Source of the DNA: a candidate division FCPU426 bacterium
Lineage (GTDB): Bacteria; Oederibacteriota; Muellerivitia; Muellerivitales; Muellerivitaceae
Length of the DNA stretch: 64,000 nt
Assembly: GCA_963771075.1 (NCBI GenBank)
Contig: CAVYSE010000024.1
Span: forward strand, 64,001 to 128,000
Direction of reading: 5' to 3'
Position 1 is the stretch's first letter, and every line of letters begins with the position of its first letter. Shown piece by piece: positions 13,827 through 41,314 of the stretch. The notes beneath the pieces are model-generated. The model was not told the origin of the DNA and did not search any database. It saw nothing but the letters and a program-made list of their open reading frames with translations. The translations under genes were made by a program, and so were the position numbers.

Positions 13827-13913
13827 GCCCGAGTGGCGAAATTGGCAGACGCAATAGACTCAAAATCTATCGGGAGCAATCCCATGTCGGTTCAAGTCCG
13901 ACCTCGGGCACCA
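13827..13913 (+). tRNA. tRNA-Leu (CAA)
   Basis: GCCCGAG/CTCGGGC acceptor stem, anticodon arm ATAGA-CTCAAAA-TCTAT, long variable arm, GGTTCAAGTCC T-arm, CCA end. Confidence 0.96.
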
Positions 13914-14255
13914 ATTTTCTTTTTTCGTTCAACAAAAAAGCTAAAAAATAATTTTTCCTGTGAACTTCCGAACTTGTCGGAAGTTTTTTTGTTTGTGTCA
14001 ATGGCCCTCCCAATTGCGAATGACACGCATATGACAAGAATTTCGAAAGAAAAATCTATTGAGGTTATGTGTTTCGGAAAACATTTGTTTTGGGCGTGTA
14101 ATTAAAAATTATTCCCTACAAGACCATAGGGCTCAGTAGACTTTCTGTAACGTGTGCTGGTCGATTTTTTCCCTAATAAGCTTGTCAATTATGCTTGTGC
14201 GAAATTAGAATTTTTATGTTTGCATCTAAAGTTCTTTCGGGTAAAGGACAACGTA

Positions 14256-21638: not shown

Positions 21639-21979
21639 TAAGACCCGTTATCGTTTTTGGTTCCCAGAACCCCATAAGTTTTTTCGGGAGATCATCAAAG
21701 GAAAAGAAAAAGTGAGGTGGGGGTGTTACTTCCTATGCCCCTAGGGAAAGTTGCTTTTGAATCTATCCTCAATCCTGGTAAAATGCCAAACAGCAAGGGA
21801 CATTAGGAGGCAGTATGAGCAAGCCTAATGTTCACGGACTTCCCCAACATCTTCGGAAAGATAGCGGGGGATATTTCCTGGATTTTTTTACCTGCACATG
21901 CCTGTCGCAAAAAGGATAGTGTGCAACTTTTTTTTGGCCAGCTATATTAGTAAAAGCTAATTAAGGTCGGGAGGTTGAG

Positions 21980-22587: not shown

Positions 22588-22971
22588 ATGACCCTGTTAT
22601 TTTTGGGGATTGGTCTGGTCGCCGGGCTGGCGGCTGGTTTTTTTGGTGTCGGCGGAGGCATTCTCATCGTTCCGGCACTCACTTTTTTAGCTGGCTTCAC
22701 GCAGGAACGGGCTACAGGTACTAGCCTGGCGGTTCTACTTCCTCCTGTGGGGCTCCTGGCGGTAATCGAATATTACCGGCATGGCAACGTGGACCTTAAG
22801 GCTGGAGTTTTGATCGCTTTGGGGCTGATCCTGGGTGCCTGGCTCGGGGCTTTAGAGGCGCATAAACTTCCCGAAGTCTGGCTTAAGATGGTTTTCGGAA
22901 TTTTTGTCACCCTGGTTGGACTTTGGATCATTTTAGGCGCCCTCAAGGGCTTCAATGTGAGGGGCCTTTAG
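22588..22971 (+). CDS. Half-size TauE/SafE family membrane protein
   Basis: GFFGVGGGILIVP, ATGTSLA. Confidence 0.85.
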   Translation: MTLLFLGIGLVAGLAAGFFGVGGGILIVPALTFLAGFTQERATGTSLAVLLPPVGLLAVIEYYRHGNVDLKAGVLIALGLILGAWLGALEAHKLPEVWLKMVFGIFVTLVGLWIILGALKGFNVRGL

Positions 22972-22975
22972 CCCG

Positions 22976-23474
22976 ATTGTGCCACCGGATTGTGCCAACT
23001 TAATCTATACACCGCGTATACCTTGAATGGCACAATCACCTGAATTGGCAGCCTCACTGCCAATTCAACAATCGCTAAATATACCCAGGGTATAAACCCA
23101 ATATTGTGCCACCCGATTGTGCTATCTATGCGACCGTATAATTACCACGCCGTGGTAAAACTTGGCACAATAACTGGCACAATCACATCCCCTTGTCGGA
23201 GTCTCCGACAATTCATTTACCTTTATTTATGCCGTCAGCATAACCCCGCCATTGTGCCACCCGATTGTGCCAACCAAATTTATACACCGCGTATATCTTG
23301 AATGGCACAATCCAACGTAGTGGCCGCATTGCGGCCACTGGGGTTCGATATTGACATTTTCTTAAGCCTGAATAAATTAATGGAAATTGTGCCACCGGAT
23401 TGTGCCATTGTGCCAACCGTTCACCGCATATGGCGGGTTAGCTAAGTGGCACAATACCGACGGAATGGCACAAT
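22976..23474. repeat. Structured array of ATTGTGCCA / TGGCACAAT sites in four units
   Basis: 9 forward and 6 reverse 9-mers; units start at 22976, 23103, 23251 and 23386. Confidence 0.92.
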
Positions 23475-23530
23475 CGTTAATCAGTGGGATTGGCACGGGG
23501 AGGGCTGATCCAATTATTTGGAGGTTTTAT

Positions 23531-24337
23531 ATGAGTTCTATGAGGACTGATTTAGAAAGCAAAATAGAATCGATCGTTTTATGGTCGTTTCTTTGGATAG
23601 CCACACTCGTTCATGCGGGTCTTACCGTTGGTGTAATGGTTGCAACAGCTAAATTCCCTCCTGGGTATGAACTTTCAACAAATTGGGTCAATCTCCTTAG
23701 CCAAGGCCCAACATCAGTAACTTTCTGGTTTTACATCATTGTTCTTGGGGTGAGCACCGTTTTTGAAAGCGACTTTAAAGGTCGCTTAGCTTATGTAAAG
23801 TCCAGTTTTCCCTTTCCTGACATTCAATATAGTCATGTGGCTGGGGTTTTATGGGCGGTTTTGTGGCTTTTTGGCCACTTGGGTGCCTCAAACGGATGGT
23901 TTACCTTTCCAAATAAATTGGGCGCAACATTTTGGACCTGTTTATTATTTGTGTTTCTTCAACGCAGTTGGAATAAAAGCAACTATGAAGAGGATCTTCA
24001 AAAAAACTCAGAAAATGCAGAAGCACCCCAGAAAACAGAAATCGCCAAGCCCCTGGAAAGGGTTCCAATTTCAAAGCCTGTGTCGGCGGCGGTCCCCGCC
24101 GCCTCGAAACCAACGGTTTCTGACAATGCCGATGTGACGGAAAAGGTCATTGAATATGTTCGCCAGAACGGCCAGGCCAAAACCGGGGGATTGATAGGAG
24201 TGTTGGGTACCCCCAGGAGAACCGTGATCCGAAACCTGAACAAGCTTATCGAGGAAGGCAAGCTGGTCAGGGAGGGGCATGGCGCTGGCGCGGTATACAG
24301 GCTTAATGACAACCCGAAAGAAGAGCGGTTTAACTAA
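23531..24337 (+). CDS. Membrane protein with C-terminal winged helix-turn-helix
   Basis: GGAGG RBS; about 4 hydrophobic segments, a P/A/K linker, then KVIEYVRQNGQAKTGGLIGVLGTPRRTVIRNLNKLIEEGKLVREGHGAGAVYRL. Confidence 0.8.
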   Translation: MSSMRTDLESKIESIVLWSFLWIATLVHAGLTVGVMVATAKFPPGYELSTNWVNLLSQGPTSVTFWFYIIVLGVSTVFESDFKGRLAYVKSSFPFPDIQYSHVAGVLWAVLWLFGHLGASNGWFTFPNKLGATFWTCLLFVFLQRSWNKSNYEEDLQKNSENAEAPQKTEIAKPLERVPISKPVSAAVPAASKPTVSDNADVTEKVIEYVRQNGQAKTGGLIGVLGTPRRTVIRNLNKLIEEGKLVREGHGAGAVYRLNDNPKEERFN

Positions 24338-24606
24338 AAACGCCAGAAAATTCGAGGTTTCGTCACAAATTTCAATTAGTGGTTAAAATCCTTTGATGCC
24401 AATTGTGATAGTCCGCCGGTTCGAGTCCAACCCGGGGAATCGAAAAATATAGGAGCGAGTAATGTCTAAAAAACTGTTGTTTATTTATTTTTTGTTTTTT
24501 CCGTTTATGGCTAATGCCCAAACTCAACCTCGTTTTTATTTTGGCTATGGCGTTGAATTTAGGGATTTGTCAGCTAAGAAAAGCGAAATAAGGAATAAAG
24601 AAATTC

Positions 24607-26019
24607 CACTCTTGTCCTAAATAAAGGACTAAAAAAAGACACCTCCGACTGAAGTAGAATTGGGTTAGTCGACAAGCCCAAAGCGACGGTTACCAGCCGT
24701 CGCTACTTCAAACATCCGGAGGCGTATTTCGATGGTACCACCAACCAGTCTTTTTGCCCAAGTGTTGAAAATTGTGGATCGCACGGCTTTTGAACGAATT
24801 GTGCGGGAGTTTGAAGCCGAAAAACACGCCAAGGGGTTCAGTTGCTGGAATCAGTTTGTTTCCATGCTTTTCTGCCAGATGGGAGCCGCCCATTCCTTGA
24901 GGGAAATCTGTGGTGGCCTCCACACGGCCCTTGGGAAATTGACCCATTTGGGTCTTTGCGAAGCACCCACTAAATCCACCTTGGCTTACGCTAACGCCAA
25001 CCGTCCTTGGCAGGTTCAGCAAAGTCTTTTCTACCATCTGCTATCGAAGTGTCAGCTACAGGCGGCCATCTCGAAGAGGAAATTCAAGTTCAAGAATCCC
25101 CTCTACAGCCTGGACTCCAGCACCATTGATCTTTGTTTGTCAGTCTTCGACTGGGCAAAGTTCCGTAGGACCAAAGGGGCCATCAAACTCCATCTCTTGC
25201 TGGATCATCAGGGATACTTGCCCTGCTGGGGACTCGTAACGGAGGGAGGCGTGCATGACGTGAAAGTGGCTCAAAAGCTGGATTTTCCGGTGGATTCAAT
25301 CGTAGTGATGGATCGGGGATATGTGGATTTCTTTCTTCTGGCCCGATGGACGTTCCAAGGCGTGTGGTGGGTGACCCGTGCCAAGATCAACATGGCCTAC
25401 GAGGTGGTGAAGAACCTGCCGGTTCCGAAAACGGGCAACGTCCTGAAGGACCAAGTGATACGGTTAACAACGTTTCGGTCACAGGAAGCCTACCCGAAAG
25501 AGATGCGACGAGTGGTGGTATGGGACGAAGACCAGAAGCGGGAACTCGTATTCCTTACCAACCACATGGGTTTTGCTGCCTCGACGGTGGCGGCCATCTA
25601 CAAGGAACGTTGGCAGATCGAGTTGTTCTTCAAGGCTCTCAAGCAGAACTTACGGGTGAAGACTTTCGTAGGGACCACTGAGAATGCTGTTCAGACGCAG
25701 ATTTGGACAGCATTGATTGCCATGCTGCTGTTGAAATTCCTTCAACTGAAGAGCCATATCGCCTGGAGCCTGTCCCACTTGGCGGCCATGCTGCGGATGA
25801 ATCTATTGACCTACCGCGATTTGTGGGCTTGGTTGGATGCACCATTCCTGGTGGCGAGATTGGAACCGGCGGAAAAACAGATGGAATTAATACCCTCGTG
25901 ATTTGGACAGCATCCGGACGAAAGGGGGGGGCTTATCCCTGGAAATTCACAAACCTGTCCAAAATCGCTTGTTTTTCTTGGGGGGCAGCGGTCAGATTGA
26001 GTTGTTTAGGATAGCAGTG
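24607..26019 (+). mobile_element. IS4-family insertion sequence
   Basis: IRs CACTCTTGTCCTAAATAA / TTGTTTAGGATAGCAGTG (14/18); 9-bp TSD AAGAAATTC at 24598-24606 and 26020-26028. Confidence 0.92.
24732..25901 (+). CDS. IS4-family DDE transposase
   Basis: LDSSTIDL, MDRGY and YKERWQIELFFKALKQ (YREK motif). Confidence 0.95.
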   Translation: MVPPTSLFAQVLKIVDRTAFERIVREFEAEKHAKGFSCWNQFVSMLFCQMGAAHSLREICGGLHTALGKLTHLGLCEAPTKSTLAYANANRPWQVQQSLFYHLLSKCQLQAAISKRKFKFKNPLYSLDSSTIDLCLSVFDWAKFRRTKGAIKLHLLLDHQGYLPCWGLVTEGGVHDVKVAQKLDFPVDSIVVMDRGYVDFFLLARWTFQGVWWVTRAKINMAYEVVKNLPVPKTGNVLKDQVIRLTTFRSQEAYPKEMRRVVVWDEDQKRELVFLTNHMGFAASTVAAIYKERWQIELFFKALKQNLRVKTFVGTTENAVQTQIWTALIAMLLLKFLQLKSHIAWSLSHLAAMLRMNLLTYRDLWAWLDAPFLVARLEPAEKQMELIPS

Positions 26020-26551
26020 AAGAAATTCAAAATAGAATTGAAATGTTGCGTAAGAAGTTTCGAAAAGGCCAGCCGTATGATGCTGTAACAATTCCTAAAA
26101 TCAGTATAGAAAATAAAATTCATCCTAGTCCGTCCGAAACGCTTTGGGCGTTTAAAAATTCTAAATTAATTGGGACGACCCATGCTAGTAAATATTCCAT
26201 TGAGTATGGTGAAGAGGATGAAACTTGGAGTTTTCGTTTTTTTGTTAAAGATTCTAAATTGAATGAATATGAGATTCTTTTTGTTTCGGTTCCATCTGAC
26301 ACAAAAACAGATGATTTGCCGATGGAATGCCATTATGAAAAGCTTTCCACCAAAAGTGGGCTGGAAAAGCTGTTAGCTAACATAAAAAAAGTTGATTTAC
26401 CGAGAAAAAGTCCTTTTGAAAAGATTTACACCAATGATGAAATGGAAAAACTACTGGAACTTATAGATTATGACGATCAAGCAGAATTATCTCCCTCGGA
26501 AGTGGAAACGTTAAAAAGATTGATGGAACAGAACTATCCGGTGAAATTCGG

Positions 26552-27905
26552 CCGCGTAAAATTTAAGGGTGTAAAAAGAAGCGGGCGTAACATGGTGTTT
26601 GTTCACGACACCATATCCCTTTTGTGAAAGGACGTTACGCCCATGAAGAATATACACCTAGCCTTAGAGGCCTTGGCAAGGGAGAAAACCCAAGCCATGG
26701 TCAAGTCGGCGGTCGGAAGCCGACAGATCGGCCAATGGGTCGGCGAGGCTCTCAACCAGCAGCTTTCCGAGGCTTTCAATACCCAATTGGAGAAGGAACG
26801 GGACGAGTTCTTGGGTAGCCAACCCTACGAAAGACAGGAAAAACCCCGTTACCGTAATGGTTTCAAGCAGGTTTTCGTGCCTGGATTTTTAGGCCGATTG
26901 GAATTGAGAAAACCAGTTTTGAGGAAGGGCAAAGGGTTCGTTTCCGAGACTTTGAAAGCCTTGAGGGAAGGCAGCCAAGCCCTGATGGGTTACCTGGGAA
27001 TGAATTTCTGGCTGAAAGGGGCTTCCACCCGGTCGGTAGCGGCGGGGATGAACGAGGCCTTTGGAACGAAATGGACGGCCAGCCACATCAGCCAGATGAC
27101 CAACGCCTTGGAACCCACGTTGCGGGAATGGGAGAAGCGGCCATTACCCGAAGGGATCCGATACCTGTACCTGGATGCGCTTTACCTGACAGTCAGGCGT
27201 CAAGAGGCTGGCGTGAAACAAGCCTTGCTGGTGGCTATCGGGGTGGATGGGAATCTCAAACGGCATTTTCTGGGATATCTGGTAGGCGACCGGGAGAGTG
27301 AAGCTTCCTGGACAACCATGGTAGAAGACCTGTTGAACCGAGGATTGGACCGCCAAACCTTGAGGCTGGTGGTCTCCGACGCGCATGGCGGGATTATCGC
27401 GGCGGTCGAAAAACGTTTGGGAGTTACCCACCAACTGTGCGTGGTGCACAAAATGAAGAACGTCCGTTTCCGGGTGGCCTGGAAGGACCAAAAGGCTTTT
27501 ATGGCCGATTTCAAGGCAGTGTACTGGGCCGAAAGCCGGGAAAAAGCCTTGATAGCTTTGGGAAGCCTCAAGACCAGGTGGTCCAGGACATATCCCAAGG
27601 CGGTGGAGATGACGGAGGAAAAATTCGAGGCTTACACCCGATTCTTTGGGGAAAAACCAAAGTACTGGCTGATTACTCGTTCCAGCAACCTCATCGAGAG
27701 GTTCAACCTGGAGCTCAGGAGAAGGCTGAGGCCGGCGGGGATGATGCAGAATGAATTGGAACTGACTAAATTGGTCTGGGCAGTGGCCGAGGCCCAACAA
27801 GAAAGATGGGATAGGCTTAAAGTCCACACCTCAAGGAAGGAGGCAGAAGCTCAAGCCGCTTGATTAAGACGCCCGTGAAAATTTACACCCAAATTCTTGA
27901 CGCGG
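26552..27905 (+). mobile_element. IS256-family insertion sequence (ends approximate)
   Basis: Imperfect IRs CCGCGT..GGGTGTAAA..CGGGCGT and ACGCCCG..TTTACACCC..ACGCGG; no target duplication seen. Confidence 0.82.
26643..27863 (+). CDS. IS256-family (Mutator-type) transposase
   Basis: YRNGF, YLYLDA, VSDAHGG, QLCVVH, SSNLIERFNLELRRR. Confidence 0.93.
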   Translation: MKNIHLALEALAREKTQAMVKSAVGSRQIGQWVGEALNQQLSEAFNTQLEKERDEFLGSQPYERQEKPRYRNGFKQVFVPGFLGRLELRKPVLRKGKGFVSETLKALREGSQALMGYLGMNFWLKGASTRSVAAGMNEAFGTKWTASHISQMTNALEPTLREWEKRPLPEGIRYLYLDALYLTVRRQEAGVKQALLVAIGVDGNLKRHFLGYLVGDRESEASWTTMVEDLLNRGLDRQTLRLVVSDAHGGIIAAVEKRLGVTHQLCVVHKMKNVRFRVAWKDQKAFMADFKAVYWAESREKALIALGSLKTRWSRTYPKAVEMTEEKFEAYTRFFGEKPKYWLITRSSNLIERFNLELRRRLRPAGMMQNELELTKLVWAVAEAQQERWDRLKVHTSRKEAEAQAA

Positions 27906-29227
27906 GGGAGATTTTTGACGCAATTGTCGAGGGGAAGGTTACCGCTGATTTAAAAAAGAAGCATAAAAACAGTAGCGTTTTGGAATGCTACGAATACTTC
28001 CATAAAAAGAAAGAAACCATAAAGACGATAGACTTTAATAAGGTTCTAAATAAGCTTTACTTCTTGGGGATTGATCTGGGCGTCGAAGAGGATGAACAGC
28101 AGATTTTTGATACCATTAATTCTTTGGGAGTTTCATTAACGACCGCCGAGCTTTTAAAAAATGAATTGTTTAAACGCGAAGATGAAGAGCTGTATGAAAA
28201 AACCTGGAAAAATATTTTTGAAAAAGATGAGGACGGTAAGTCTTATTGGGATTTAGAGGTTACCTCAGGCCGCCAACATAGGGTCAATATTGATTTATTT
28301 CTTCAAGCATACCTACTTATTAAAAGCGATGCTCACGATAAGTATTTGGGTTTAAGCAGTTTGTTTTCCAATTACAAAAATTATCTTAAAGACCATTCGG
28401 TTGATAAGGCGAGTTTTGTTAGCGAGTTGGTTAAGTTTGCGACACCATACCAAAATTCAATTGACCCCGACCTTTTAAATCAAGAGATAGACCAAAAGGC
28501 TTTCATTGACCGACTCAACATTGTTGTTTTTGGACTGAACACAACAACGGTTATTCCATACATCCTTTATATTTTAAATGAGGTCAAGAGCAAGGATGAA
28601 AGAGAAGGTGTTTTTCGGCTCTTGGAAAGTTACTTGATGCGGAGATTGATTTGCAGGGAAACAACAAAAGCTTACAACAACCTTTTTGCCTCTTTTATCC
28701 GCAATAAGATCAATGGGCTGGATAACCTAAAAAATAAAATTGAACAGTTTGATGATCCAACCAATCGCTTTCCCACTGATAAAGTCTTTTTAAAAGCTTT
28801 TCAAGAGAACAAGCTTACGAATCAACAAGCCAAAACAGTCCTTTATTTGATCGAAAAGTCGGTTCAAAGCGTTAAGGACTCTACCGTAATTAGGCCATTT
28901 AACGAGTATAGCGTTGAACATGTTATGCCAAAAAAATGGAGAAATAATTGGGATAACATCGGAGATAACGATGCCGATGAAAGAGACGAGTATTTGTTGA
29001 GGCTTGGAAACCTTACTATCCTCACCGCCTCTCTTAACAGCTCTATCCGTGATGCCGAATGGAATGTTAAAAAGGCCGGGAAAAATAGTAAGAAAGGCCT
29101 TGAGGAATACAGCGCTGGAATTAAAACTTTCCACCCCTACTTGAAGGAATCAGACTGGAACGAAGATGTGATCGCAAAGAGAGGCAAAAAACTTTCGGAA
29201 ATGGCCGTCGATTTGTGGAATTTATAA
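27906..29227 (+). pseudogene. 5'-truncated GmrSD-like (DUF262-DUF1524) restriction protein
   Basis: IFDTINSLGVSL (end of DUF262) and SVEHVMPK..LGNLTIL..N (DUF1524 HNH); the QR and DGQQR motifs are absent and the ORF start lies inside the IS256 end. Confidence 0.8.
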
Positions 29228-29313
29228 GCCGGGTTAAGGCTCTCTTTGTTTTTTAATTGCTTCCGGTATTCCCTTAGCTTGAATCCGAGGTTTGCGTCCA
29301 GGGTCATTTATGG

Positions 29314-29502
29314 ATGAACCTTGAGTTTGTAAAAAAACTAAAACTTTTACAGTTAATGGATAAAATAAACGAGGATCTGAGGCCTGGAACACTTCGTATG
29401 TCTTCTGATGGAAAGGGCCAGCGGTGGTTGACTCGTTTTGACTTTGAGAGTCCAAACTATACTACTGACTTCAGGAGCATTCCGACTGCAAAGATTTGTT
29501 AA
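29314..29502 (+). pseudogene. UmuC C-terminal (DUF4113-like) fragment
   Basis: LMDKIN..GTLR..W...SPNYTTD...P pattern without a polymerase domain. Confidence 0.6.
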
Positions 29503-29550
29503 TCAAGGAAACCGAACACAGAAATCCGAGTTTGATAATTTTAAAAATAA

Positions 29551-31617
29551 ATGTCTGGAGTAACCAGTTTGGAACACGAAGAAATTCAGAAAAAAAAGGC
29601 ACTTCTTTTTACGACCATTAGCCGCTTGATTCCGACAACGGAAGTTCTTAGGAAAAAAACTCTCGAAAAACTAATTGAACTAACTCTTTTTTCGATTTAC
29701 CCACGAGCGGGCGACGCTAAAAAAATTGGTTCTTTGATAAATAAGGAATGCGGGTTCGTTTTACCGCCAACTATTGTTCAAGAAATATTGGATGGATTGG
29801 CAGAGGGGGAAAGAGTAAAAAAAGATTCGGAAAAATATTATTTATTCAAAGAAGTATTTGAAGAAATAGAGGCGGGACAAACGGGCGCGGAAAAAAGATA
29901 CCAAAGTGTAATAAAAAGAATTTTTAAGGTTCGCGACTCCGGAGATTTAGAAAAATATTATTTACCATTTTTAGAATATATCTCTTTGGTATTCTCAAAA
30001 TTGGCCGACGAATACGTAAAGATATTAAAGGGCGAAATATCGCAAAGTGATTTTGTTTCTTCTGGATTCATAATTGATTCAATCAAAGTAATCCTGAAAA
30101 GTTATTCGTCGGTTGACAAGGAAATATTTTCTAACGGTATTTATGTTTTTTTGAAAACGACGCCCGACCCCGATTTTGATTTAATAAAATGGTACACATC
30201 TCAAAATTATTATTTGGCAAAATCAATTGGCCTTGATCCGGCGGGTTATATATTAAGTGAAGAGATTTTTAAAAACGGTTCATTTTATTTAGACACAAAT
30301 GTTCTCGTTGCGGCAATTGAAGGCAAACACAGACACCATGACTCAATCACAATTCTTATGAAAAAAGCTAAACAGTTGAACATCGATATTTATGTTTCTG
30401 AAGCAACGAAAAGCGAATTGCTCCACACTGTAAATGATCAGAAGAAATTACTGGAAAAAGTAATAGATAATATCCCTTTGGAATTACACCATAGGATGAG
30501 ATCGGATTTTTTGGAAAAATACGATGAGCTTAAAAACCATAATCCTGACGCAAAAATTGATGAAGTTTTTAAAGACTATGAAGATTTGAACAATACATTT
30601 GAAAAACTGAATATCAAAGTTGTTGATGATGAATGGTTTGACCGAGAAAAAGATTCTCCTTCCACTGGTATGTTGGCGGATTATTTAAAAACGAAGTATA
30701 AAAAAATGAGAAGCAAAGAAAAAGAATCACTTCCTGCTTTTCACGACGCCTTAATGTTGAGGTGGATACATGAAATTGAGCAAAAGGATCGGAGGACGTG
30801 GTTCATCACACTTGACACTACATTGCCTGGCCCATTAGGGGAGATAAAGACCGAATACTCCATCGCGATAACCTTGGATGCCATTCTCCAATATTTTGCC
30901 CCGATGGCGGGTGAGACTGATGATTTTCAAAAAATCTTTAGTAATCTTGTTAAAAACAGACTTCTCCCTGAAGAAAGAATGTTTGATTTAAAAGATTTTT
31001 TAATCTTTGACCAACTGGGAATTCAGACCAAAACATTGCCGATTGATGATGTTGAGGGGTGTTTAATAGATTTAAAAGGAAAATTTTCTAATACGGATTT
31101 GAGCAACCCTGTCATCAAACGAAATATGGATTATGAAGTTGCAAGGTATTTTACTGACCCCAGCAGAAAATTTAACCTGGAAGTAATGAGGTTAGAAGGA
31201 GAGTTGAAAAATACAAAAAATATGACTGCAGAGGAAATCGATAGATTGAAAACGGAATTAAGCGAGAAGTTATTGGAAAAAGATAAAATTCACCAATCAA
31301 TCGCGTCAGAGTTGAATATTAAAATAAGCCAACTTACAACAACGGGTGAAACCGAAAAATTGAAACATGAAGGGCAGCTTAGAGGATTAGTCTTGGCTAT
31401 GTTGCTGGTGGCTATGGAATTCGGAATGTTTAAACTTTCTCAGGTTTACGGGGATGGTGATAATTGGTTTCAAAAAATGTTAGCTTCGTGGGAGGGATTT
31501 GGAATTACTGGAGTTCTTTGGATTTTCATTTGTTACTTTTTAATCGGGAAAAAAAGGTTTGTGGCTATGGGTTGGCCATTCACCGAAATTTTTAAAATAA
31601 AAGATTTATCTGAATAG
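29551..31617 (+). CDS. Large PIN-like domain protein with coiled coil and two C-terminal TM helices
   Basis: FYLDTNVL, HDALML, FITLD; helical tail; two hydrophobic segments. Confidence 0.65.
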   Translation: MSGVTSLEHEEIQKKKALLFTTISRLIPTTEVLRKKTLEKLIELTLFSIYPRAGDAKKIGSLINKECGFVLPPTIVQEILDGLAEGERVKKDSEKYYLFKEVFEEIEAGQTGAEKRYQSVIKRIFKVRDSGDLEKYYLPFLEYISLVFSKLADEYVKILKGEISQSDFVSSGFIIDSIKVILKSYSSVDKEIFSNGIYVFLKTTPDPDFDLIKWYTSQNYYLAKSIGLDPAGYILSEEIFKNGSFYLDTNVLVAAIEGKHRHHDSITILMKKAKQLNIDIYVSEATKSELLHTVNDQKKLLEKVIDNIPLELHHRMRSDFLEKYDELKNHNPDAKIDEVFKDYEDLNNTFEKLNIKVVDDEWFDREKDSPSTGMLADYLKTKYKKMRSKEKESLPAFHDALMLRWIHEIEQKDRRTWFITLDTTLPGPLGEIKTEYSIAITLDAILQYFAPMAGETDDFQKIFSNLVKNRLLPEERMFDLKDFLIFDQLGIQTKTLPIDDVEGCLIDLKGKFSNTDLSNPVIKRNMDYEVARYFTDPSRKFNLEVMRLEGELKNTKNMTAEEIDRLKTELSEKLLEKDKIHQSIASELNIKISQLTTTGETEKLKHEGQLRGLVLAMLLVAMEFGMFKLSQVYGDGDNWFQKMLASWEGFGITGVLWIFICYFLIGKKRFVAMGWPFTEIFKIKDLSE

Positions 31618-31783
31618 TAATCATTCGGATGTGTTTCGGGTTTTATTTGGCTTTTGATTCAGACGTTAATAAACTGTTGTTCCGAATCAATGCTGACTAA
31701 ATTCCATGTCTTTTTAAAAACTTTCTCATTTAACAACCAAGCTAAACCCTTGGAAGCATATCTCAAACTTCTTTTGAAAAATA

Positions 31784-32257
31784 TTACCCCCTTACAAATT
31801 TATGGGTCCATTTCATTTCGTTCATTGAATCTGCATTTATAACCAACGTTAAACTTATTATTCCGCCGGGGCCTAGAAAAATTTTTTCTTGGAAAGTTGA
31901 TCCTGATTCTAATCTAGCCGGGATGGAAATTCTTTCTTTTATTTGTTTTTGGGTTTGTTCTGCGCAATTTGTGTCAAATACGAAATCGATTTTTAAATTT
32001 GTAACCGGGACTTCACCGACATTTTTTATTTCAAATCCGGGTAGTGTGAATTCGTAATGATCTGTTTTCTCGGCTTTGACATAAGTCAGAGTCAGTTTCG
32101 GTTTTTTTAATTTTTCTTCGGTTGAATTTCTTCGCTCATCCTCTACTTTCCATCTTTGTCTATTTGCCCACTCACGATACCCTGCCAATAGAAAACTAAG
32201 AATTCCCAGTGCAATGCCCCACCAACCTGAAGGGCCCGGAGAATATGGTTCGGGCAT
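31784..32257 (-). CDS. Hypothetical membrane-anchored protein
   Basis: N-terminal TM, beta-rich IKNVGEVPVTNL domain, GGAG RBS. Confidence 0.6.
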   Translation of the reverse strand: MPEPYSPGPSGWWGIALGILSFLLAGYREWANRQRWKVEDERRNSTEEKLKKPKLTLTYVKAEKTDHYEFTLPGFEIKNVGEVPVTNLKIDFVFDTNCAEQTQKQIKERISIPARLESGSTFQEKIFLGPGGIISLTLVINADSMNEMKWTHKFVRG

Positions 32258-32559
32258 TTCATACTCCTTGCGTTATTAAAAAATACTACATTTCTTATTA
32301 TCTCATGAAGTTAGTTTGTTTCCTCATTTACCGACCAGCCTTAGCCCTAGGGGGCTTGCCCTCGGACGTAAAAGCACGTCCGGGTCACCAGGCCTCGGAT
32401 GCTGTCACTTTGTTTTCGCACTCCGTCGGAAAACTCGAAAACATTTAATGGGCCGATAGTCCGCAGGGCTACCTATCGTCCCCAAATCCATTGGCCGCCC
32501 CCCTCCTCGATTGAGGGGGCGGCCTTCCAGCCGCGCTCAATAAAAGCGGAGGTAGGAAG

Positions 32560-33051
32560 ATGGAAACAAACAGAGCGAAAAAAGAAGAATTGAAATTCGA
32601 GTTAAGGGTGTTACCGCCTCCAACGGTTCCCCCGACAACATGGGCCGAAGCGAGGGCAGACTACAAAAGGGGGCCGGTGGTTTCAGGCCCAGAGGATGCC
32701 ATTGCCTACTTCCAACAATACATAGGCGGGAAGCCCAAGGAAGCTTTCTTGGCCATGTTCATTGACCACAGAAACCACGTTCTCGATTGCGTTTTGATGC
32801 AGGAGGGGACGGTTGACCATACGGCAGTTTACCCAAGGGAAATTCTCAAGAAGGCTTTGGACTTGAACGCAACTGGGCTCATCTTTTCTCATAACCACCC
32901 AGCAGGTAGCCTGGAACCCTCCGAGGGGGACAAGGCTTTGACCCGACAAATCCTGACTGCCTCTAGGGCCTTAGGCATTACCGTCCATGACCACATCATC
33001 GTAGCCCACGAGGGCCACTTTTCATTCCGGCAAGCCGGGCTTCTGGTTTGA
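32560..33051 (+). CDS. radC: RadC-like JAB domain protein
   Basis: E..., VYPREI, HNHPAG...PSEGD, HDHIIV; short MGE-type form. Confidence 0.9.
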   Translation: METNRAKKEELKFELRVLPPPTVPPTTWAEARADYKRGPVVSGPEDAIAYFQQYIGGKPKEAFLAMFIDHRNHVLDCVLMQEGTVDHTAVYPREILKKALDLNATGLIFSHNHPAGSLEPSEGDKALTRQILTASRALGITVHDHIIVAHEGHFSFRQAGLLV

Positions 33052-33062
33052 GGGGGTTAGGT

Positions 33063-33245
33063 ATGAAATTCCTAAGAGAAGCCGTTACTTGCTTTCATGG
33101 GTGGGATGAGGAAAGGGAGTGGAGGCCTTGCCCCTCCTGTGGAGGATATTGCCCAAGCTGTGGGAGGTGGGGAATGGTCCTCGATTGGCAAACGGGGAAT
33201 TGCTTGGAATGCCAGGAGGTATTCGACTCGGACTACCAGGGATAA
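33063..33245 (+). CDS. Small Cys-rich protein
   Basis: CPSC, CPSC and CLEC motifs downstream of radC. Confidence 0.5.
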   Translation: MKFLREAVTCFHGWDEEREWRPCPSCGGYCPSCGRWGMVLDWQTGNCLECQEVFDSDYQG

Positions 33246-33389
33246 AAATCCAACAAAAATCAGGCCCTGTCCCCAGGGCCTTTTTACGTCCGGCAGGGAA
33301 GGGGGTGATCCCTCCCCTGCACCCCACCCCTGTTTAATAACGAAAGAAGCATCGAATAAAAATCACATCTGATAAAATGTCACAACAAT

Positions 33390-35477
33390 ATGAGCAAAAA
33401 TATAAAACCAAAATTAATTACGATTGATGAGACTTCGAAGCATTTAGACGAGGTCAAGGAGTTGGGGAGAAAAAATTCCTCTACATTAGGGTTTTTCCCC
33501 GATGGGGCATTTTTGGACCATGCCCATAAAAAAAGAATTTTAGGTGTAACAATTGGAGATGAATTTGCAGGTTATTTGCTTTACAGAGTTTCTAAAAATT
33601 CAGTAAAAATTGTCCATTTGTGCATCAAAGAGAGATTTCGTGGAAAGAATTTGTCTAAGGTACTCATTGACCATCTGAAGGAAGAAACATCAATGTTTCG
33701 AGGAATTAGCCTTAGATGTCGTCGGGATTTTCCTGCGAACAAAATGTGGCCCAAATTAGGTTTTACGGCTGTTAGCGAAAAAGCAGGCCGCAGTTTTGAA
33801 CAAAAGACACTAACCTTTTGGTGGCTCGATCATGGTCATCCAAATTTGTTCACATTCTCTGTTCAAAAGCAAGCAGAAACAAAATGGACGGCGGTCATTG
33901 ATGCGAATATCTTTTTCGACTTGTTTAGCGACGAAAGCGAAGAATCGAAAGCGCTGTTAGCAGATTGGCTTAAGGATGATTTGGAATTGTGTGTAGCTCC
34001 TGAAATTTTTAACGATATTGATCGTTCGGAAAATTCCGAAAATAGAAAAAAGATGAAGGAAGCGGCTAAAAACTTTTCTACCCTACCAGTCTCCAATGAT
34101 TTAATAACCGAGACTCAAAAAAACCTTAAAAAATATTTCCCAAAAGATTTAACAGATAGCGACCATTCAGATATAAACCACCTTAGTCAAGCAATTTGCT
34201 CGGATGCTGATTTTTTTGTTACTAGAGATCAAGTTCTATTGGATAACGCATTAAAAATAAAAGAAGAGTTTCCAATAGAAATTGTTCGTCCGTCAGATTT
34301 AATCATTAAGCTGGACGAACTTTTACACTTGAAAAATTATTACCCTTCGCGCTTGGCTGGAACGAGCTTGAGCACAAAAAGCATTACAAGCGGAGAACAG
34401 GATTCAGTCTTCGGTGAGTTTAGAAACCCAATAGGGGGAGAAACAAAAAGCGATTTTCTACAAAAGCTTAGGAAATATTTAGCAGATCCGCAGACCTTTA
34501 GGTGTTCAATCGTCCAGGATGGCTTAAAACCTTTAGCCTTTTTTGTTTTAGACAGATCCGAAAAAAATAAACTAATAATTCGGTTTTTGAGATGCAAACA
34601 AAACAATCTTTCTTTGACTCTGTTGCGCCATCTTTTGTTTCATTTTTTGAAAATTTGCGTGAATGAAAAACGGGCTTGTCTTGTGATTTCGGACAACCAT
34701 TTATCGGGGTATGTCGAAAGAGAGTTGTTGAAAGATAAGTTCATAAAGCATGGACCCGATTGGCACAAGTTTCTCTTTGACTTTATCGGCGATCATAAAC
34801 AGATAAATAATAAATTGAAAACTCTCATCTCTTCTGGGGTGATTGATCGAAAAATATTTAAGGATCACATCTCTGTTTTGAAAAGAAAAAATATTTTCAA
34901 AGATAATCGGTCGATAAATGAGCTCCAAAAATTATTTTGGCCATTAAAAATTGAGAGTAAAGACTCCAACATTTATTTGGTACCCATTAGGCCGAGATGG
35001 GCCAAGGATTTATTTGACGAAAATATCGCTAGTGAAGATCTCTTTGGCGCCAAAAAGGAATTGGCTCTAAGTCGAGAGCAAGTTTATTATCGCTCTGCTC
35101 GGCCTTCGGGGATTAAAGCTCCTGGTGGCATTTTGTGGTACGTGAGTGAAGACAAAGGCTATAGTGGCACAAGTTGCATAAGGGCATTTTCAATTCTTGA
35201 TTCTGTGGAAATTTCAAAGCCCAAAGACCTTTTTAAAAAATATGAAAGACTTGGGATTTACAGTTGGAAAGATGTTTTTAAAACTGCGAAAGCAAATATT
35301 GGGAATGATATTATGGCCATTAAATTTTCTGAAACAGAGCTTTTTAAAAACCCCATCTCGATGAAAGATCTTTCAAAAATTCTTTCGCGAAGGGGCAAAG
35401 GGCTTCTGTTACAGTCACCACTTAAAGTTACGAACGATGTCTTTTTGGAAATTTATAAACTAGGGTGTGGAGAATGA
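33390..35477 (+). CDS. GNAT acetyltransferase-PIN fusion with PUA/EVE-like C-terminus
   Basis: HLCIKERFRGKNLS..ANKMWPKLGF (GNAT); VIDANIF, D..HL, FVTRD (PIN); VPIRPRWA..LF, VYYRS, ILWYVS tail. Confidence 0.75.
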   Translation: MSKNIKPKLITIDETSKHLDEVKELGRKNSSTLGFFPDGAFLDHAHKKRILGVTIGDEFAGYLLYRVSKNSVKIVHLCIKERFRGKNLSKVLIDHLKEETSMFRGISLRCRRDFPANKMWPKLGFTAVSEKAGRSFEQKTLTFWWLDHGHPNLFTFSVQKQAETKWTAVIDANIFFDLFSDESEESKALLADWLKDDLELCVAPEIFNDIDRSENSENRKKMKEAAKNFSTLPVSNDLITETQKNLKKYFPKDLTDSDHSDINHLSQAICSDADFFVTRDQVLLDNALKIKEEFPIEIVRPSDLIIKLDELLHLKNYYPSRLAGTSLSTKSITSGEQDSVFGEFRNPIGGETKSDFLQKLRKYLADPQTFRCSIVQDGLKPLAFFVLDRSEKNKLIIRFLRCKQNNLSLTLLRHLLFHFLKICVNEKRACLVISDNHLSGYVERELLKDKFIKHGPDWHKFLFDFIGDHKQINNKLKTLISSGVIDRKIFKDHISVLKRKNIFKDNRSINELQKLFWPLKIESKDSNIYLVPIRPRWAKDLFDENIASEDLFGAKKELALSREQVYYRSARPSGIKAPGGILWYVSEDKGYSGTSCIRAFSILDSVEISKPKDLFKKYERLGIYSWKDVFKTAKANIGNDIMAIKFSETELFKNPISMKDLSKILSRRGKGLLLQSPLKVTNDVFLEIYKLGCGE

Positions 35478-35968
35478 TCAGCAAGGCAAGTAAAGAAAAA
35501 GTTCTGCTCTTATCCATAAAGCCAGAGTATGCGAACAAAATATTTTCTGGCGAAAAGACAGTAGAACTGAGGAGGACAAAGCCGAATCTTAAAAGAGGGG
35601 ACATCGTGGCAGTTTATGTTTCGTCTCCAATAATGGCTTTGTCAGGGCAATTTGAAGTTGATGAAGTATTGGAACGGAAACCGGAAAAATTATGGTCGGA
35701 AGTAGGAGAAGAGTCGGGGATAAAGAAAAATGAGTTTGAAAATTATTATCGCGGTGCTGAAATTGGCTTTGGTATAAAAATTAAAAAGGTAGTAAATTTT
35801 AAACGCCCTGTCCCACTGTCCAACTTGAGAAAAACCTGGACCGGATTTAATCCCCCCCAAATTTATAGATATTTGCCCCAAGGTGAATACAACCAAGTGC
35901 TTTCATGGAGAAATATTTTTCCGTTTAAAATTCGACGAGTTGGAAATTACTTAACTACGTTCTTTTAA
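35474..35968 (+). CDS. ASCH domain protein
   Basis: LLSIKPEYANKIFSGEKTVELRR, PPQ.YRY; ATGA coupling. Confidence 0.88.
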   Translation: MISKASKEKVLLLSIKPEYANKIFSGEKTVELRRTKPNLKRGDIVAVYVSSPIMALSGQFEVDEVLERKPEKLWSEVGEESGIKKNEFENYYRGAEIGFGIKIKKVVNFKRPVPLSNLRKTWTGFNPPQIYRYLPQGEYNQVLSWRNIFPFKIRRVGNYLTTFF

Positions 35969-35990
35969 ATAATTGAAAAAAAGGGAATAA

Positions 35991-37994
35991 ATGGCCGAAC
36001 TAATTTGGGATGGGAAATATAAAGACGGGAAAAAAGTAGCCCCTGTCCGCATTGCCTTGCCTTTTCAAACCATTGAAACCGTAAACGAAAGCACTCAAGA
36101 CCGCCAAAAATCGCTTGATATGTTTTCGAGTGGCAGGGATTCAAACTGGAAAAATCGCCTGATTTGGGGTGATAAAAAATATGTCCTCCCATCCCTTCTC
36201 GAAGAATTTGCTGGCAAGATAAATCTCATTTATATCGATCCACCTTTTAATGTTGGAGCCGATTTTTCATTTGAAGCGACAATACCTGATGAGCCTGAAT
36301 CTGAAAACGAAGAAGTAACAACCTTTGAAAAGACTCCTAATGTTATTGAAATGAAGGCATATCGAGACACTTGGGGTAAAGGCCTTGATTCATATTGTCA
36401 GTGGTTTTACGAGACGGTTCTTATGCTTCAGGAGTTATTAAGCGAAAAAGGGATGATATTCGTCCATTTGGATTGGCATGTGAGCTATTACGCAAAGGCA
36501 ATTTTAGATGAGGTTTTTGGAGAAGATAAGTTTGTGAACGAAGTAGTTTGGAAAAGACAAACTGCAAAAGGGGACGTGGCACAAGGTTCTCAACATATGG
36601 GTCGAATTCACGAGAGTATTTTCGTTTATTCAAAATCACCAAGCTACACATGGAATATGGAATATACCCCATATGAACAAAAGTATATCGATTCTTTTTA
36701 CCGTTATAAAGAATCTGATGGAAGACGGTATCAACTAAGTGATGTAACTGCCCCAGGCAAAGGAAAGGCATCAAAAGGAAATCCATCGTATGAATTTTTA
36801 GGCGTAACTAGATATTGGCGTTTCTCGAAGGAAAATATGAACGAGCTATATAAGCAAGGGAAAATCGTTCAAACGTCGCCGGGCACTGTTCCACGTCAAA
36901 AAAGATATCTGGACGAAATGCAGGGAGTTCCTCTTCAAGATATTTGGTTGGATGTTCAACACGTTCAAGCCCAATCAACCGAAGGTTTGGGGTACGACAC
37001 ACAAAAACCAGAAATTCTTTTAGAACGTATTGTTAAACTTGCAAGCAATGAAGAAGACATAGTTTTGGACTGTTTTGCAGGAAGTGGGACAACCGCAGCG
37101 GTTGCTGAAAAACTTAAGAGGCGATGGATTACGTGTGACCTGGGCCGTTATTCAATTCATACGGCCCGAAAACGACTTCTTTCTATTCCAGGAGTAAACC
37201 CGTTTGTAATTCAAAACCTTGGAAAGTATGAAAGGCAAGCTTGGCAAATTGCTGAATTTCCTGAACTGGATAAGCAAGTCGAAAAAGAATTAAAATATCG
37301 GAAATTCATTTTGAACTTATACAAAGCAGAACCTATGACGGGGTTCACTTGGCTTCATGGGACCAAGAAAGACCGAATGATTCATGTGGGGGCGGTGGAT
37401 TCCCCGGTTACACTGGCTGATGTAAAAGCAATTGCAGCTGAAACCTGGAAAGCAGTTGGTAAAGGTAAAGATTCCCCCAAAAAAGCTGCGGTGGACATCC
37501 TTGGGTGGGACTTCGCTTTGGAAGTGAATGAAATCTCTAAGCAGATAGCCGCCGAATCCGGGGTGGAAGTTCATTTCAAAGTCATTCCTCGTGAAGTTCT
37601 TGAGAAAAAAGCCGTTGAACAAGGCGATATCAAGTTTTTTGAATTGGCTTCCTTGGCCGTGGATATCAAAGCAACCGGGTTAGAAGTGACAGCCAGTCTT
37701 AAAGATTTTGTCATTCCTCCTAATGATGTTCCTGCGGAAATTCAAAAAGAAATCAAACATTATTCTCAGTGGGTAGATTATTGGGCGATTGATTGGGATT
37801 ACAAAAGTGACACCTTCCACAACGAATGGCAAAGCTACCGCTCCCGCCAAAACCAAGACCTCGAACTCACCACCAATCACACTTACGAAACGCCGGGGGA
37901 ATACCAAGTGGTGGTGAAGGTGATTGATATTCTTGGCAACGATACAACTAAACTTTTAAAGATCAAGGTAGCGGATGCCAAAAAGAAAAAGTAA
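35991..37994 (+). CDS. Type III R-M DNA methyltransferase (Mod)
   Basis: IYIDPPF precedes TQKPE..LDCFAGSGTT (beta class). Confidence 0.9.
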   Translation: MAELIWDGKYKDGKKVAPVRIALPFQTIETVNESTQDRQKSLDMFSSGRDSNWKNRLIWGDKKYVLPSLLEEFAGKINLIYIDPPFNVGADFSFEATIPDEPESENEEVTTFEKTPNVIEMKAYRDTWGKGLDSYCQWFYETVLMLQELLSEKGMIFVHLDWHVSYYAKAILDEVFGEDKFVNEVVWKRQTAKGDVAQGSQHMGRIHESIFVYSKSPSYTWNMEYTPYEQKYIDSFYRYKESDGRRYQLSDVTAPGKGKASKGNPSYEFLGVTRYWRFSKENMNELYKQGKIVQTSPGTVPRQKRYLDEMQGVPLQDIWLDVQHVQAQSTEGLGYDTQKPEILLERIVKLASNEEDIVLDCFAGSGTTAAVAEKLKRRWITCDLGRYSIHTARKRLLSIPGVNPFVIQNLGKYERQAWQIAEFPELDKQVEKELKYRKFILNLYKAEPMTGFTWLHGTKKDRMIHVGAVDSPVTLADVKAIAAETWKAVGKGKDSPKKAAVDILGWDFALEVNEISKQIAAESGVEVHFKVIPREVLEKKAVEQGDIKFFELASLAVDIKATGLEVTASLKDFVIPPNDVPAEIQKEIKHYSQWVDYWAIDWDYKSDTFHNEWQSYRSRQNQDLELTTNHTYETPGEYQVVVKVIDILGNDTTKLLKIKVADAKKKK

Positions 37995-40548: not shown

Positions 40549-40594
40549 AATCTTCGATTCAGATGACCACAAAATACTGATAGGTTCATTTCCA

Positions 40595-41314
40595 ATGCGT
40601 TGTATTTTTTGCAAAAAACCTTCGGGAACTTCTAAGGCTGTTGAGCACATAGTGCCCGAATCGCTCGGGAATCTACACCATGTTCTGCCGAAAGGTTTTG
40701 TTTGTGATAGTTGTAATCAATACTTCGCAAGAAAAATTGAACGGCCCTTGCTTGAGTCCGGGGTTTTTAAATTCATACGTGCAGATCGCATTATCCCGAA
40801 TAAAAAAGGAAGGATTCCACAATTTGATATTTGCGAAAGTGGTTCAATGCCCGATGTTCGAATAATGAGCAGATTCATCGGGAAAGTTGGTTTAGAAATA
40901 TTGGCCCAAAGAATTCAAAATATTGAAAACTGGAATAGAGATTTAGTAGAAAAGGAAGAGCTTGATGTTCTCCGTCAATATGTTCGTTTCAATCAGGGTG
41001 GTAATTGGCCTTTTTATTGTCGGACACTATATCCAGTGAATACGGTTTTTACAGAACAAGAAGAGATGTACGAAACACTTCACGAGTATGATTTGCTTTA
41101 TACAAAGCGAAACGAATTATACGTCGTAATTATTCTGTTTGGGGTTGAGTATTCCTTGAATATGGGCGGCCCCGAGTTGGAAGGTTATGAAGAATGGCTA
41201 AAGGAAAATAATAGTGAAAGCCATTTGTATATTGGAAAAAATTCAGAACCAAAAAAGTTCAAAGAATACTTCTTTACGGAAAGCCTGATTTCGAAGTGGA
41301 TGAACAAGGGCTGA
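40595..41314 (+). CDS. HNH endonuclease domain protein
   Basis: CIFC..EHIVPESLG..CDSCN. Confidence 0.8.
   Translation: MRCIFCKKPSGTSKAVEHIVPESLGNLHHVLPKGFVCDSCNQYFARKIERPLLESGVFKFIRADRIIPNKKGRIPQFDICESGSMPDVRIMSRFIGKVGLEILAQRIQNIENWNRDLVEKEELDVLRQYVRFNQGGNWPFYCRTLYPVNTVFTEQEEMYETLHEYDLLYTKRNELYVVIILFGVEYSLNMGGPELEGYEEWLKENNSESHLYIGKNSEPKKFKEYFFTESLISKWMNKG

Follow-up and report, generated by a model that had tools for sequence, protein, structure and literature searches.

What purpose is served by fifteen copies of a 9-mer placed directly in front of the gene for a protein that begins as a predicted membrane domain and ends as a winged helix? The question is raised by a 64,000-nucleotide stretch from a candidate division FCPU426 bacterium (Oederibacteriota; assembly GCA_963771075.1, contig CAVYSE010000024.1, positions 64,001 to 128,000), which is referred to here as the window. 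At 22976-23474 of the window, 15 ATTGTGCCA/TGGCACAAT sites form four convergent units immediately 5' of the gene for a 268-residue protein. An earlier reading by a model that saw the letters alone (the sequence-only reading) proposed that this array is the cis partner of the protein, and offered three uses for it: a DNA-to-membrane tether or partition site, an iteron-like origin, and a multi-operator. The partnership is now strongly supported by conservation and by co-variation between motif and recognition helix, and sequence comparison indicates that the array is very likely the binding site of the window protein. As for what the pair does, we give an even chance to an autoregulated, motor-less DNA-membrane tether made of a single protein.

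Co-variation of repeat arrays and winged helices

Does the array travel with the gene? Inspection of the upstream DNA of homologs shows that the 9-mer array is present at all 11 distinct full-length close-homolog loci, with 8-42 TGGCACRAT sites within 1 kb 5' of the start. These loci are L001, L056, L002, L015, L003, L016, L057, L060, L061, L062 and L063 (G, C and L numbers denote genomes, contigs and loci); left out of the count are L058 and L023, which duplicate L057 and L060, and L059, which has no upstream DNA. The arrays consist of convergent units or of 17-bp tandem runs, and tandem arrays reach 26-42 copies in G001 and G002. The closest comparison is provided by L056, whose protein is 96% identical. 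The 3' half of its array is almost identical to that of the window; in the 5' half the sites and the palindrome positions are kept, the spacers and the upstream gene differ, and the switch occurs at a 9-mer pair. Contigs of one DNA run show this L056-type haplotype, which shares the window array from 23163 onward. Within the phylum, paired 9-mers occur in 7 of 99 genomes, six of which encode the matching winged helix, either intact or as a remnant. Six metagenome fragments that encode only the winged helix-turn-helix (wHTH) have no 9-mer array. As a separate observation, the wHTH-only fragments L067-L069 carry another array 5', of about ten CCGGCGG repeats, and a GmrSD-like gene 3'.

Distant relatives extend the comparison to other motifs. 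The membrane domain is found in 8 of the 99 phylum genomes, with nine copies in G035 alone, and at nine further loci of other metagenome-assembled genomes (MAGs). Twenty distant loci have at least 300 bp of upstream DNA, and a blind count of 8-mers finds a private motif in at least five copies at nine of them; among random upstream windows of the window genome, 19 of 1500 reach this threshold. Two others have four copies, five have arrays that by eye look degenerate, and two paralogs in G056 carry a convergent array 3' of the stop codon. When the motifs, which were chosen post hoc, are tabulated against the loci, the table is diagonal: every locus has its own motif and not those of the others. 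The recognition helix RTVIRNL goes with TGGCACRAT, RTVNYWQ with TTGCGCGAT, RAVNYCQ with TTCGCGAT, STTIRML with TGACACG, STINRLL with TGAGACG, and LTVNRML with TGATACG. About 20 TGTCCGYAA sites precede the ATG of L178, a paralog that came to light once the idea was in place, and the motif of its close paralog L111 is TGGCGGAT. The motifs are also concentrated where they would be expected: in G035, six of nine TGACACTAG copies and four of five ATTAATTGCAC copies lie at the cognate gene, and the cognate motif of G014 occurs 20 times in that genome versus 0-3 times in four others. Because paralogs of the same genome differ in motif, shared genome ancestry does not explain the co-variation, even though kin are not independent of each other. 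A motif that is conserved in close homologs and private in distant ones thus points to the protein's own binding site.

Could the repeats belong to something else, with the gene as a mere neighbour? Two candidates are iterons and the arm sites of tyrosine integrases from stacked elements. The locus lies in a low-GC island extending from a tRNA-Leu (13827-13913) to near 42 kb, and at this tRNA there is the relic of an integrase element, consisting of a 5' integrase stub (21815-21905) and a TGACACG-type arm-like pair (14021-14037). Intact members of this integrase family (on C3, twice on C7 and on C27) have a common N-terminus, and further copies of the pair are present at C7, C11 and C27. The direct pairs of 11-13 bp, moreover, look like arm sites. 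However, this TGACACG-type pair, which stands at the ends of the integrase family, represents another motif, no 9-mer cluster is located at any of the genome's eight integrase genes, and the motif follows the sequence of the winged helix rather than that of any integrase or Rep. The iteron-like origin of the sequence-only reading finds no support in the neighbourhood either: no Rep, ParA or integrase is present in 76 scanned neighbour open reading frames (ORFs) from 26 homolog loci, and no Rep in the scanned ORFs of the window. The 76 are the scanned part of 131 listed ORFs, the rest being family genes, repeat-derived or spurious ORFs and some housekeeping genes. A tblastn search against plasmids and phages gave no match, and a profile search based on the close alignment brought up no relative among collections of genome contigs and viral contigs. 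We regard iterons or arm sites as very improbable.

The 9-mer is likewise no dispersed repeat in this genome, a possibility that would have undermined the partnership. The 4.39 Mb in 28 contigs contain 29 exact copies, 14 of them in the array, and order-3/4 Markov models predict 12-15 copies genome-wide. Close pairs outside the array occur at only two places (C24:42322 and C28:429496), so that there are three clusters in total. The picture is different in some relatives, namely G014, G024, G025 and G018, where gene-less 9-mer clusters that the sequence-only reading did not foresee make the motif partly a dispersed one, most clearly in the first three.

Layout of the array and of its protein

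All 15 positions and orientations listed in the sequence-only reading were reproduced exactly by a motif scan of the window. Forward 9-mers start at 22976, 22989, 23103, 23116 (one mismatch), 23251, 23264, 23386, 23399 and 23407, and reverse ones at 23028, 23163, 23175, 23303, 23447 and 23466. The spacing of the four units (127, 148 and 135 bp) and the likeness of units 1 and 3 also stand as described. The features of the locus are as follows, with > and < for forward and reverse sites.

22976..23036, no strand: unit 1 (> > <), with the palindromic spacer TATAC-N5-GTATA; the near-identical strain L056 has another haplotype here
23043..23065, no strand: 23-bp palindrome AATT...AATT between units 1 and 2; L056 has a different palindrome of equal length at the equal position
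23103..23183, no strand: unit 2 (> > < <), spacer palindromic
23193..23211, no strand: palindrome between units 2 and 3, which also scored as terminator-like on the plus strand
23251..23311, no strand: unit 3 (> > <), identical to unit 1 in 57 of 62 bases
23320..23338, no strand: palindrome between units 3 and 4
23351..23378, plus strand: sigma70-like promoter candidate TTGACA-16-TAAATT, a consensus match only; identical in L056
23386..23474, no strand: unit 4 (> > > < <), 3' of the promoter candidate and 5' of the ribosome-binding site
23520..23524, plus strand: ribosome-binding site GGAGG, 6 nt 5' of the ATG
23531..24337, plus strand: gene for the 268-residue protein, with a four-helix predicted membrane domain, a disordered linker and a C-terminal winged helix
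24418..24438, plus strand: copy of a tRNA-Asn 3' end, 80 bp past the stop; also in several homolog loci, and not mentioned in the sequence-only reading

A feature that had escaped the sequence-only reading is that the spacers, both within and between units, are short palindromes. Those at 23043-23065, 23193-23211 and 23320-23338 belong to a kind of AATT...AATT palindromes of about 23 bp, which have interiors that vary freely yet stay self-complementary, and are often followed by AAATAAGGG. They occur in the arrays of two wHTH families, the present one and a second one described below, and at C1:34267, C22:24333, C24:42276 and C24:143452 of the window genome (G000). Because the spacers are palindromic, the array region folds strongly, with the units as long hairpins (z -9.7). 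At E <= 5 the array has no Rfam match, and ARAGORN found no tRNA in it. The spacing of the 9-mers is mixed, with distances of 8, 12-13 and 17-19 bp.

The promoter element named in the sequence-only reading proved to be the best of seven promoter-like matches in 22850-24500 (10 of 12 consensus positions). If used, it would place unit 4 in the transcribed leader. The contigs from two RNA runs are no more than isolated pieces of 151 nt and are no evidence of transcription. A resemblance of TGGCAC to sigma54 promoters was dropped by eye, there being no -12 TTGC at the proper spacing.

The expected architecture of about four transmembrane (TM) segments, a linker and a wHTH is borne out by the AlphaFold2 model, which predicts four long helices (2-38, 62-85, 100-121 and 130-161), a low-confidence linker and a winged helix. 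The membrane domain covers approximately residues 14-146, the linker (163-197) is rich in Pro and Ala, and the recognition helix reads RRTVIRNL. Hydropathy peaks of 1.92 (residues 20-38), 1.58, 1.36 and 1.04 support helices 1 and 2 well and helices 3 and 4 weakly in the window copy; paralogs have two to four peaks above 1.6. In the model, the loops joining the membrane helices are short and there is no periplasmic domain. Folded alone, the membrane domain is predicted with a pLDDT of 89, and a structure search returns generic helical bundles only (best Z 8.3). It has no noteworthy sequence match in Pfam, PHROG or PDB and none in BFVD at E <= 0.001, a lack of family or fold matches that does not demonstrate a new fold.

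The winged helix just passes the Pfam cut-off for HTH_DeoR (21.1 bits versus 21), and the best 25 of 43 matching Pfam families are of DeoR, HTH_24, IclR and MarR types. In structure it reaches Z values of about 10 to many wHTH chains. AspA was ranked first by a Foldseek search with the full model (E 1.4e-3), VIA-align ties many wHTH chains, and no closeness to AspA or Z-alpha is claimed. Among 5.8 billion proteins there are 22 close relatives, followed by a distant tail among 50%-identity representatives, and they are annotated as 'hypothetical protein'. Matches in the ESM Atlas, in phage-rich clusters of TM+HTH_24 proteins, are all below 0.9 and serve as a lead only. A search for longer, fused forms found none, which is weak evidence since one fusion, described below, escaped that search.

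Tether, regulator, selfish module or sentinel

How would such a protein act? The predicted four-helix domain would insert in the membrane as an anchor, the disordered linker would supply reach, and many winged-helix heads would, with high probability given the co-variation, load onto the 9-mers. Judged by geometry, the protein would probably repress its own promoter, which lies between units 3 and 4. With membrane insertion and 9-mer binding taken together, the chromosomal locus would physically be held at the membrane. That tethering is also the function for which the system is selected is an evenly balanced proposition.

The design occurs with more than one anchor. A profile of the wHTH finds four proteins of 135-191 residues in the window genome (C3:186830-187315, minus; C11:299033-299500, plus; C24:143634-144206, plus; C28:396047-396451, minus; relatives L131-L145), which have no TM segment and start with an amphipathic helix (hydrophobic moment 0.46-0.62 versus medians of 0.19-0.36). 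Each of their genes lies behind its own array of inverted 11-13-mers. A comparison of 19 ORFs shows that a single helix residue tracks the motif: I or V occurs with AATTGGACG (5 loci), A with AATTGGAAG (7 loci), T with AATTGGCAG / AATTGGCA(G) (4 loci) and K with AATTGGCCG (1 locus). Of the 19, one has no upstream DNA and L119 has no clear motif in its upstream window. The family is a supported clade (99/96), in which the T/GGCAG pairing lies on two branches. At C3:185621-191332, a gene of this family and its array lie beside a DUF1016-like gene and directly upstream of what we take, by eye, to be cas1/cas2-like ORFs of a type I-E cas operon.

A third arrangement is found in G035, where L114:1242-2525 encodes a ParB-like N-terminus, an HTH, a linker with short in-frame ATGTCCAA repeats and, last, the four-helix membrane domain of the present family (hhalign probability 95.8, E 8e-9). 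The tether is thus favoured because two unrelated anchors share one design and a ParB-like protein has the same domain, and further because arrays can be 3' of the gene or reach 42 sites, with no sensor loop and no conserved regulon in evidence. Its purpose may be the positioning or retention of an accessory region, or contact between nucleoid and membrane. More speculatively, we consider it possible, though doubtful, that these families form an expandable, lineage-specific DNA-to-membrane addressing system, in which several orthogonal proteins per genome, with a four-helix or an amphipathic anchor besides the winged helix and in one case a ParB fusion, read their own arrays by a simple recognition code, pin separate regions or islands and meet in composite site hubs. 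One gene-less spot of G002 (L155) combines sites of both wHTH families with AATAAGGG-linked palindromes.

Several observations speak against tethering or temper it. The membrane domain is patchily distributed, and a 99%-complete genome from the same genus yielded no copy of it, which implies that the module is not core segregation machinery. G018 (89% complete) has arrays, and the protein was not detected there. The family is found on chromosomal contigs and has no match on plasmids or phages. In 11 of the 20 distant loci the count of private 8-mers stays below the blind threshold; in L124 no array was found, and in L110 only a weak one. Most arrays lie directly 5' of the start codon, as plain operators do, and only 5 of 11 close loci have a promoter consensus of at least 9/12 inside the array or immediately 3' of it. 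The four-helix domain contains the invariant residues Y68, W108 and T133, a conservation beyond what a passive anchor requires, and might be a sensor or pair with a partner. By the wHTH tree (70 columns, backbone unresolved), the amphipathic family may or may not be the sister of the TM family. The ParB label of the G035 fusion rests on a GGHKRL-type motif, and Pfam gives no ParB match. Finally, genes of soluble Fic/AlbA-type proteins with the same wHTH class have three to four copies of a private 8-mer upstream (L008, L021, L099 and L070), so that arrays alone do not imply tethering; these repeats hint that autoregulation may be general in this class of wHTH. A supposed identity of the 9-mer with in-frame linker repeats of Fic/AlbA genes was only weakly borne out: four AlbA-type genes have short linker repeats, and none of these contains the motif.

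These points lead to the multi-operator that the sequence-only reading had offered. The protein could be an ordinary transmembrane regulator, whose four-helix domain senses a membrane cue, whose array is a multi-site operator for its own gene and for variable downstream genes, and for which DNA-membrane contact is a side effect. PMC10269533 defines transmembrane transcription regulators (TTRs) by a DNA-binding domain and at least one TM segment, and both are predicted for the window protein, which formally makes it one. Sites lie on both sides of the promoter candidate, the array stops 29-65 nt short of the ATG in 7 of 11 close loci, polar and aromatic residues are conserved in the membrane domain, and the next gene is usually co-oriented. 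Yet the gene neighbours, and with them the possible targets, are not conserved, the amphipathic family has the same kind of array without an evident sensor, and a regulator accounts poorly for up to 42 sites, 3' arrays and a membrane domain fused to a ParB-like protein. We consider this regulator possible but the weaker candidate. Tether and multi-operator thus both remain from the sequence-only reading, with the tether somewhat favoured.

Other traits of the locus are reminiscent of mobile repeats. In a selfish or nearly neutral module, gene and array would duplicate and decay, orphan arrays would spread in the manner of repetitive extragenic palindromes (REPs) or miniature inverted-repeat transposable elements (MITEs), and self-binding would merely lower expression. 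A truncated duplicate of gene and array occupies a second site in G035 (L181), and remnants consisting of the wHTH only are found in G024, G014 and G025. G025 has gene-less 9-mer arrays of two to three units (L028, L043 and L047), situated before prfC, in the guaA/dnaE gap and in the aspS/phoH gap (gene names by eye). In G014 (L031, L037, L041, L045, L049 and L054) and G024 (L032 and L004), the 9-mer unit is combined with other short repeats in MITE-like mosaics, repeatedly beside insertions of the IS3 and IS21 insertion sequence (IS) families. The 17-bp expansions resemble slippage, and the units form the long hairpins described above.

The tRNA-Asn fragment 3' of the gene fits such a module as well. 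It follows the gene in L015, L003, L016, L057, L060 and L084, is decayed in L002, and is missing from L056, L062, L063 and the distant clades. The window genome has at least seven scattered copies of this 3' end, most of them immediately 5' of variable genes (further copies at C5:104395, C22:14571, 14705 and 20180, C3:115683 and C28:264959; true tRNA-Asn at C11:233668-233742), and the dispersed ends may mark a cassette or att-like system. As a side observation, the gene 3' of the window gene (24459-26360) is split by an IS4-family element (transposase 24732-25901); a longer homolog lies at L002:382-1407. Against a selfish module, different families of the phylum and other MAGs retain intact membrane domains, at 13-25% identity, and neither a catalytic domain nor a linked mobilising enzyme turned up: the 76 neighbour ORFs include one Y1 transposase and a few IS, with RAYT not searched genome-wide. 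A selfish or nearly neutral module therefore appears unlikely.

The surroundings suggest yet another role. Besides the integrase relic, the low-GC island contains a HigBA-like pair, stress genes, IS4 and IS256-type elements, and, at 27860-41314, a defence cluster with a GmrSD-like nuclease, a PIN protein, RadC, PDC-M11A/B (GNAT-PIN + ASCH), a type III restriction-modification system and an HNH protein. The protein might be an anti-phage sentinel, inactive while on its array and released or clustered upon degradation of host DNA or shut-off of transcription. Like typical defence modules, the family is patchily distributed and has orthogonal paralogs. However, no PADLOC model matches the window protein and most homolog loci are without defence neighbours, so that a sentinel is a long shot, still less probable than the selfish module.

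Likeness to known DNA-membrane systems

To our knowledge, the bacterial DNA-membrane anchors described so far are a few proteins of the Bacillota (Noc, RocS, RicO and Par). Should the window protein be a true tether, it would be an independently built anchor, with a membrane domain that matched no family or solved fold in the searches made and with up to nine orthogonal copies per genome, and locus-specific membrane attachment could then be put to the test in a laboratory host. If it is a regulator instead, its family would still offer a natural set of winged helix/9-mer pairs, and the one-residue code of the amphipathic family would be useful for studying the evolution of specificity and for orthogonal parts. 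A search for literature on the motif or the protein family found none; subscription journals were largely outside its scope and supplements were excluded.

DNA is coupled to the membrane by site-specific HTH proteins in the Noc/NBS and ParB/parS systems. The window protein differs from both in having no ParB CTPase domain and in sites that are non-palindromic 9-mers. Membrane-bound regulators with the ToxR/CadC layout consist of an N-terminal OmpR-type wHTH, one TM segment and a periplasmic sensor. With a C-terminal wHTH, four helices and short loops, the window protein does not fit this layout. As TTRs, ToxR, CadC and BcrR share with it a DNA-binding domain and TM segments in one chain; there, too, it stands apart by having no periplasmic sensor, no conserved target operon and its wHTH at the C-terminus, and the available text of PMC10269533 does not describe a paralog-private array of 8-42 sites for TTRs.

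A different kind of likeness is offered by the Streptomyces systems TraB/clt and SpdB2, membrane proteins whose C-terminal domain, according to PMC4447253, reads element-specific short direct repeats. In contrast to TraB, the 268 residues of the window protein comprise helices, linker and wHTH with no FtsK/SpoIIIE-type ATPase, and the locus has no plasmid context and no spd operon.

The nearest systems in terms of mechanism are RocS of S. pneumoniae, RicO of S. aureus, Par of pSK1, and RacA, which combine a small wHTH, a spacer and a membrane anchor without an ATPase. According to 10.64898/2026.03.06.710092 and PMC11500499, RicO and RocS bridge DNA and membrane via an HTH and an amphipathic helix, RicO binds a specific motif, and the anchor of RocS can be replaced by unrelated TM domains, amphipathic helix and TM segment being exchangeable. 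In these proteins of the Bacillota, which act near the origin, a MerR-type wHTH at the N-terminus is followed by a coiled coil and then by an amphipathic helix (DUF536-AH) at the C-terminus. The window protein has the reverse order, a disordered linker and a DeoR/HTH_24-like wHTH, and thus departs from them in both domain order and wHTH type. Its family further differs by a dense array at its own gene and by up to nine paralogs per genome with different motifs. The amphipathic family has its helix at the N-terminus, not at the C-terminus.

On the DNA side, the closest parallel is StbA of plasmid R388, which according to 10.1101/2022.04.29.490116 binds 9-bp repeats in its own promoter and acts as both repressor and centromere binder. 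Clusters of 9-bp repeats at the own promoter are shared with the window locus, as are the lack of an NTPase and the smaller groups of sites elsewhere on the replicon. StbA is a soluble protein with an N-terminal PadR-like HTH, encoded beside oriT on a conjugative plasmid, and its direct repeats follow an 11-bp phase. In contrast, the window locus lies on a chromosomal contig, its repeats are convergent with mixed spacing, and its product is a predicted integral membrane protein with a C-terminal wHTH. The window system would thus work like RocS/RicO/Par at the membrane and like StbA/stbS at its repeats, and by domain order and type it is not a member of either group.

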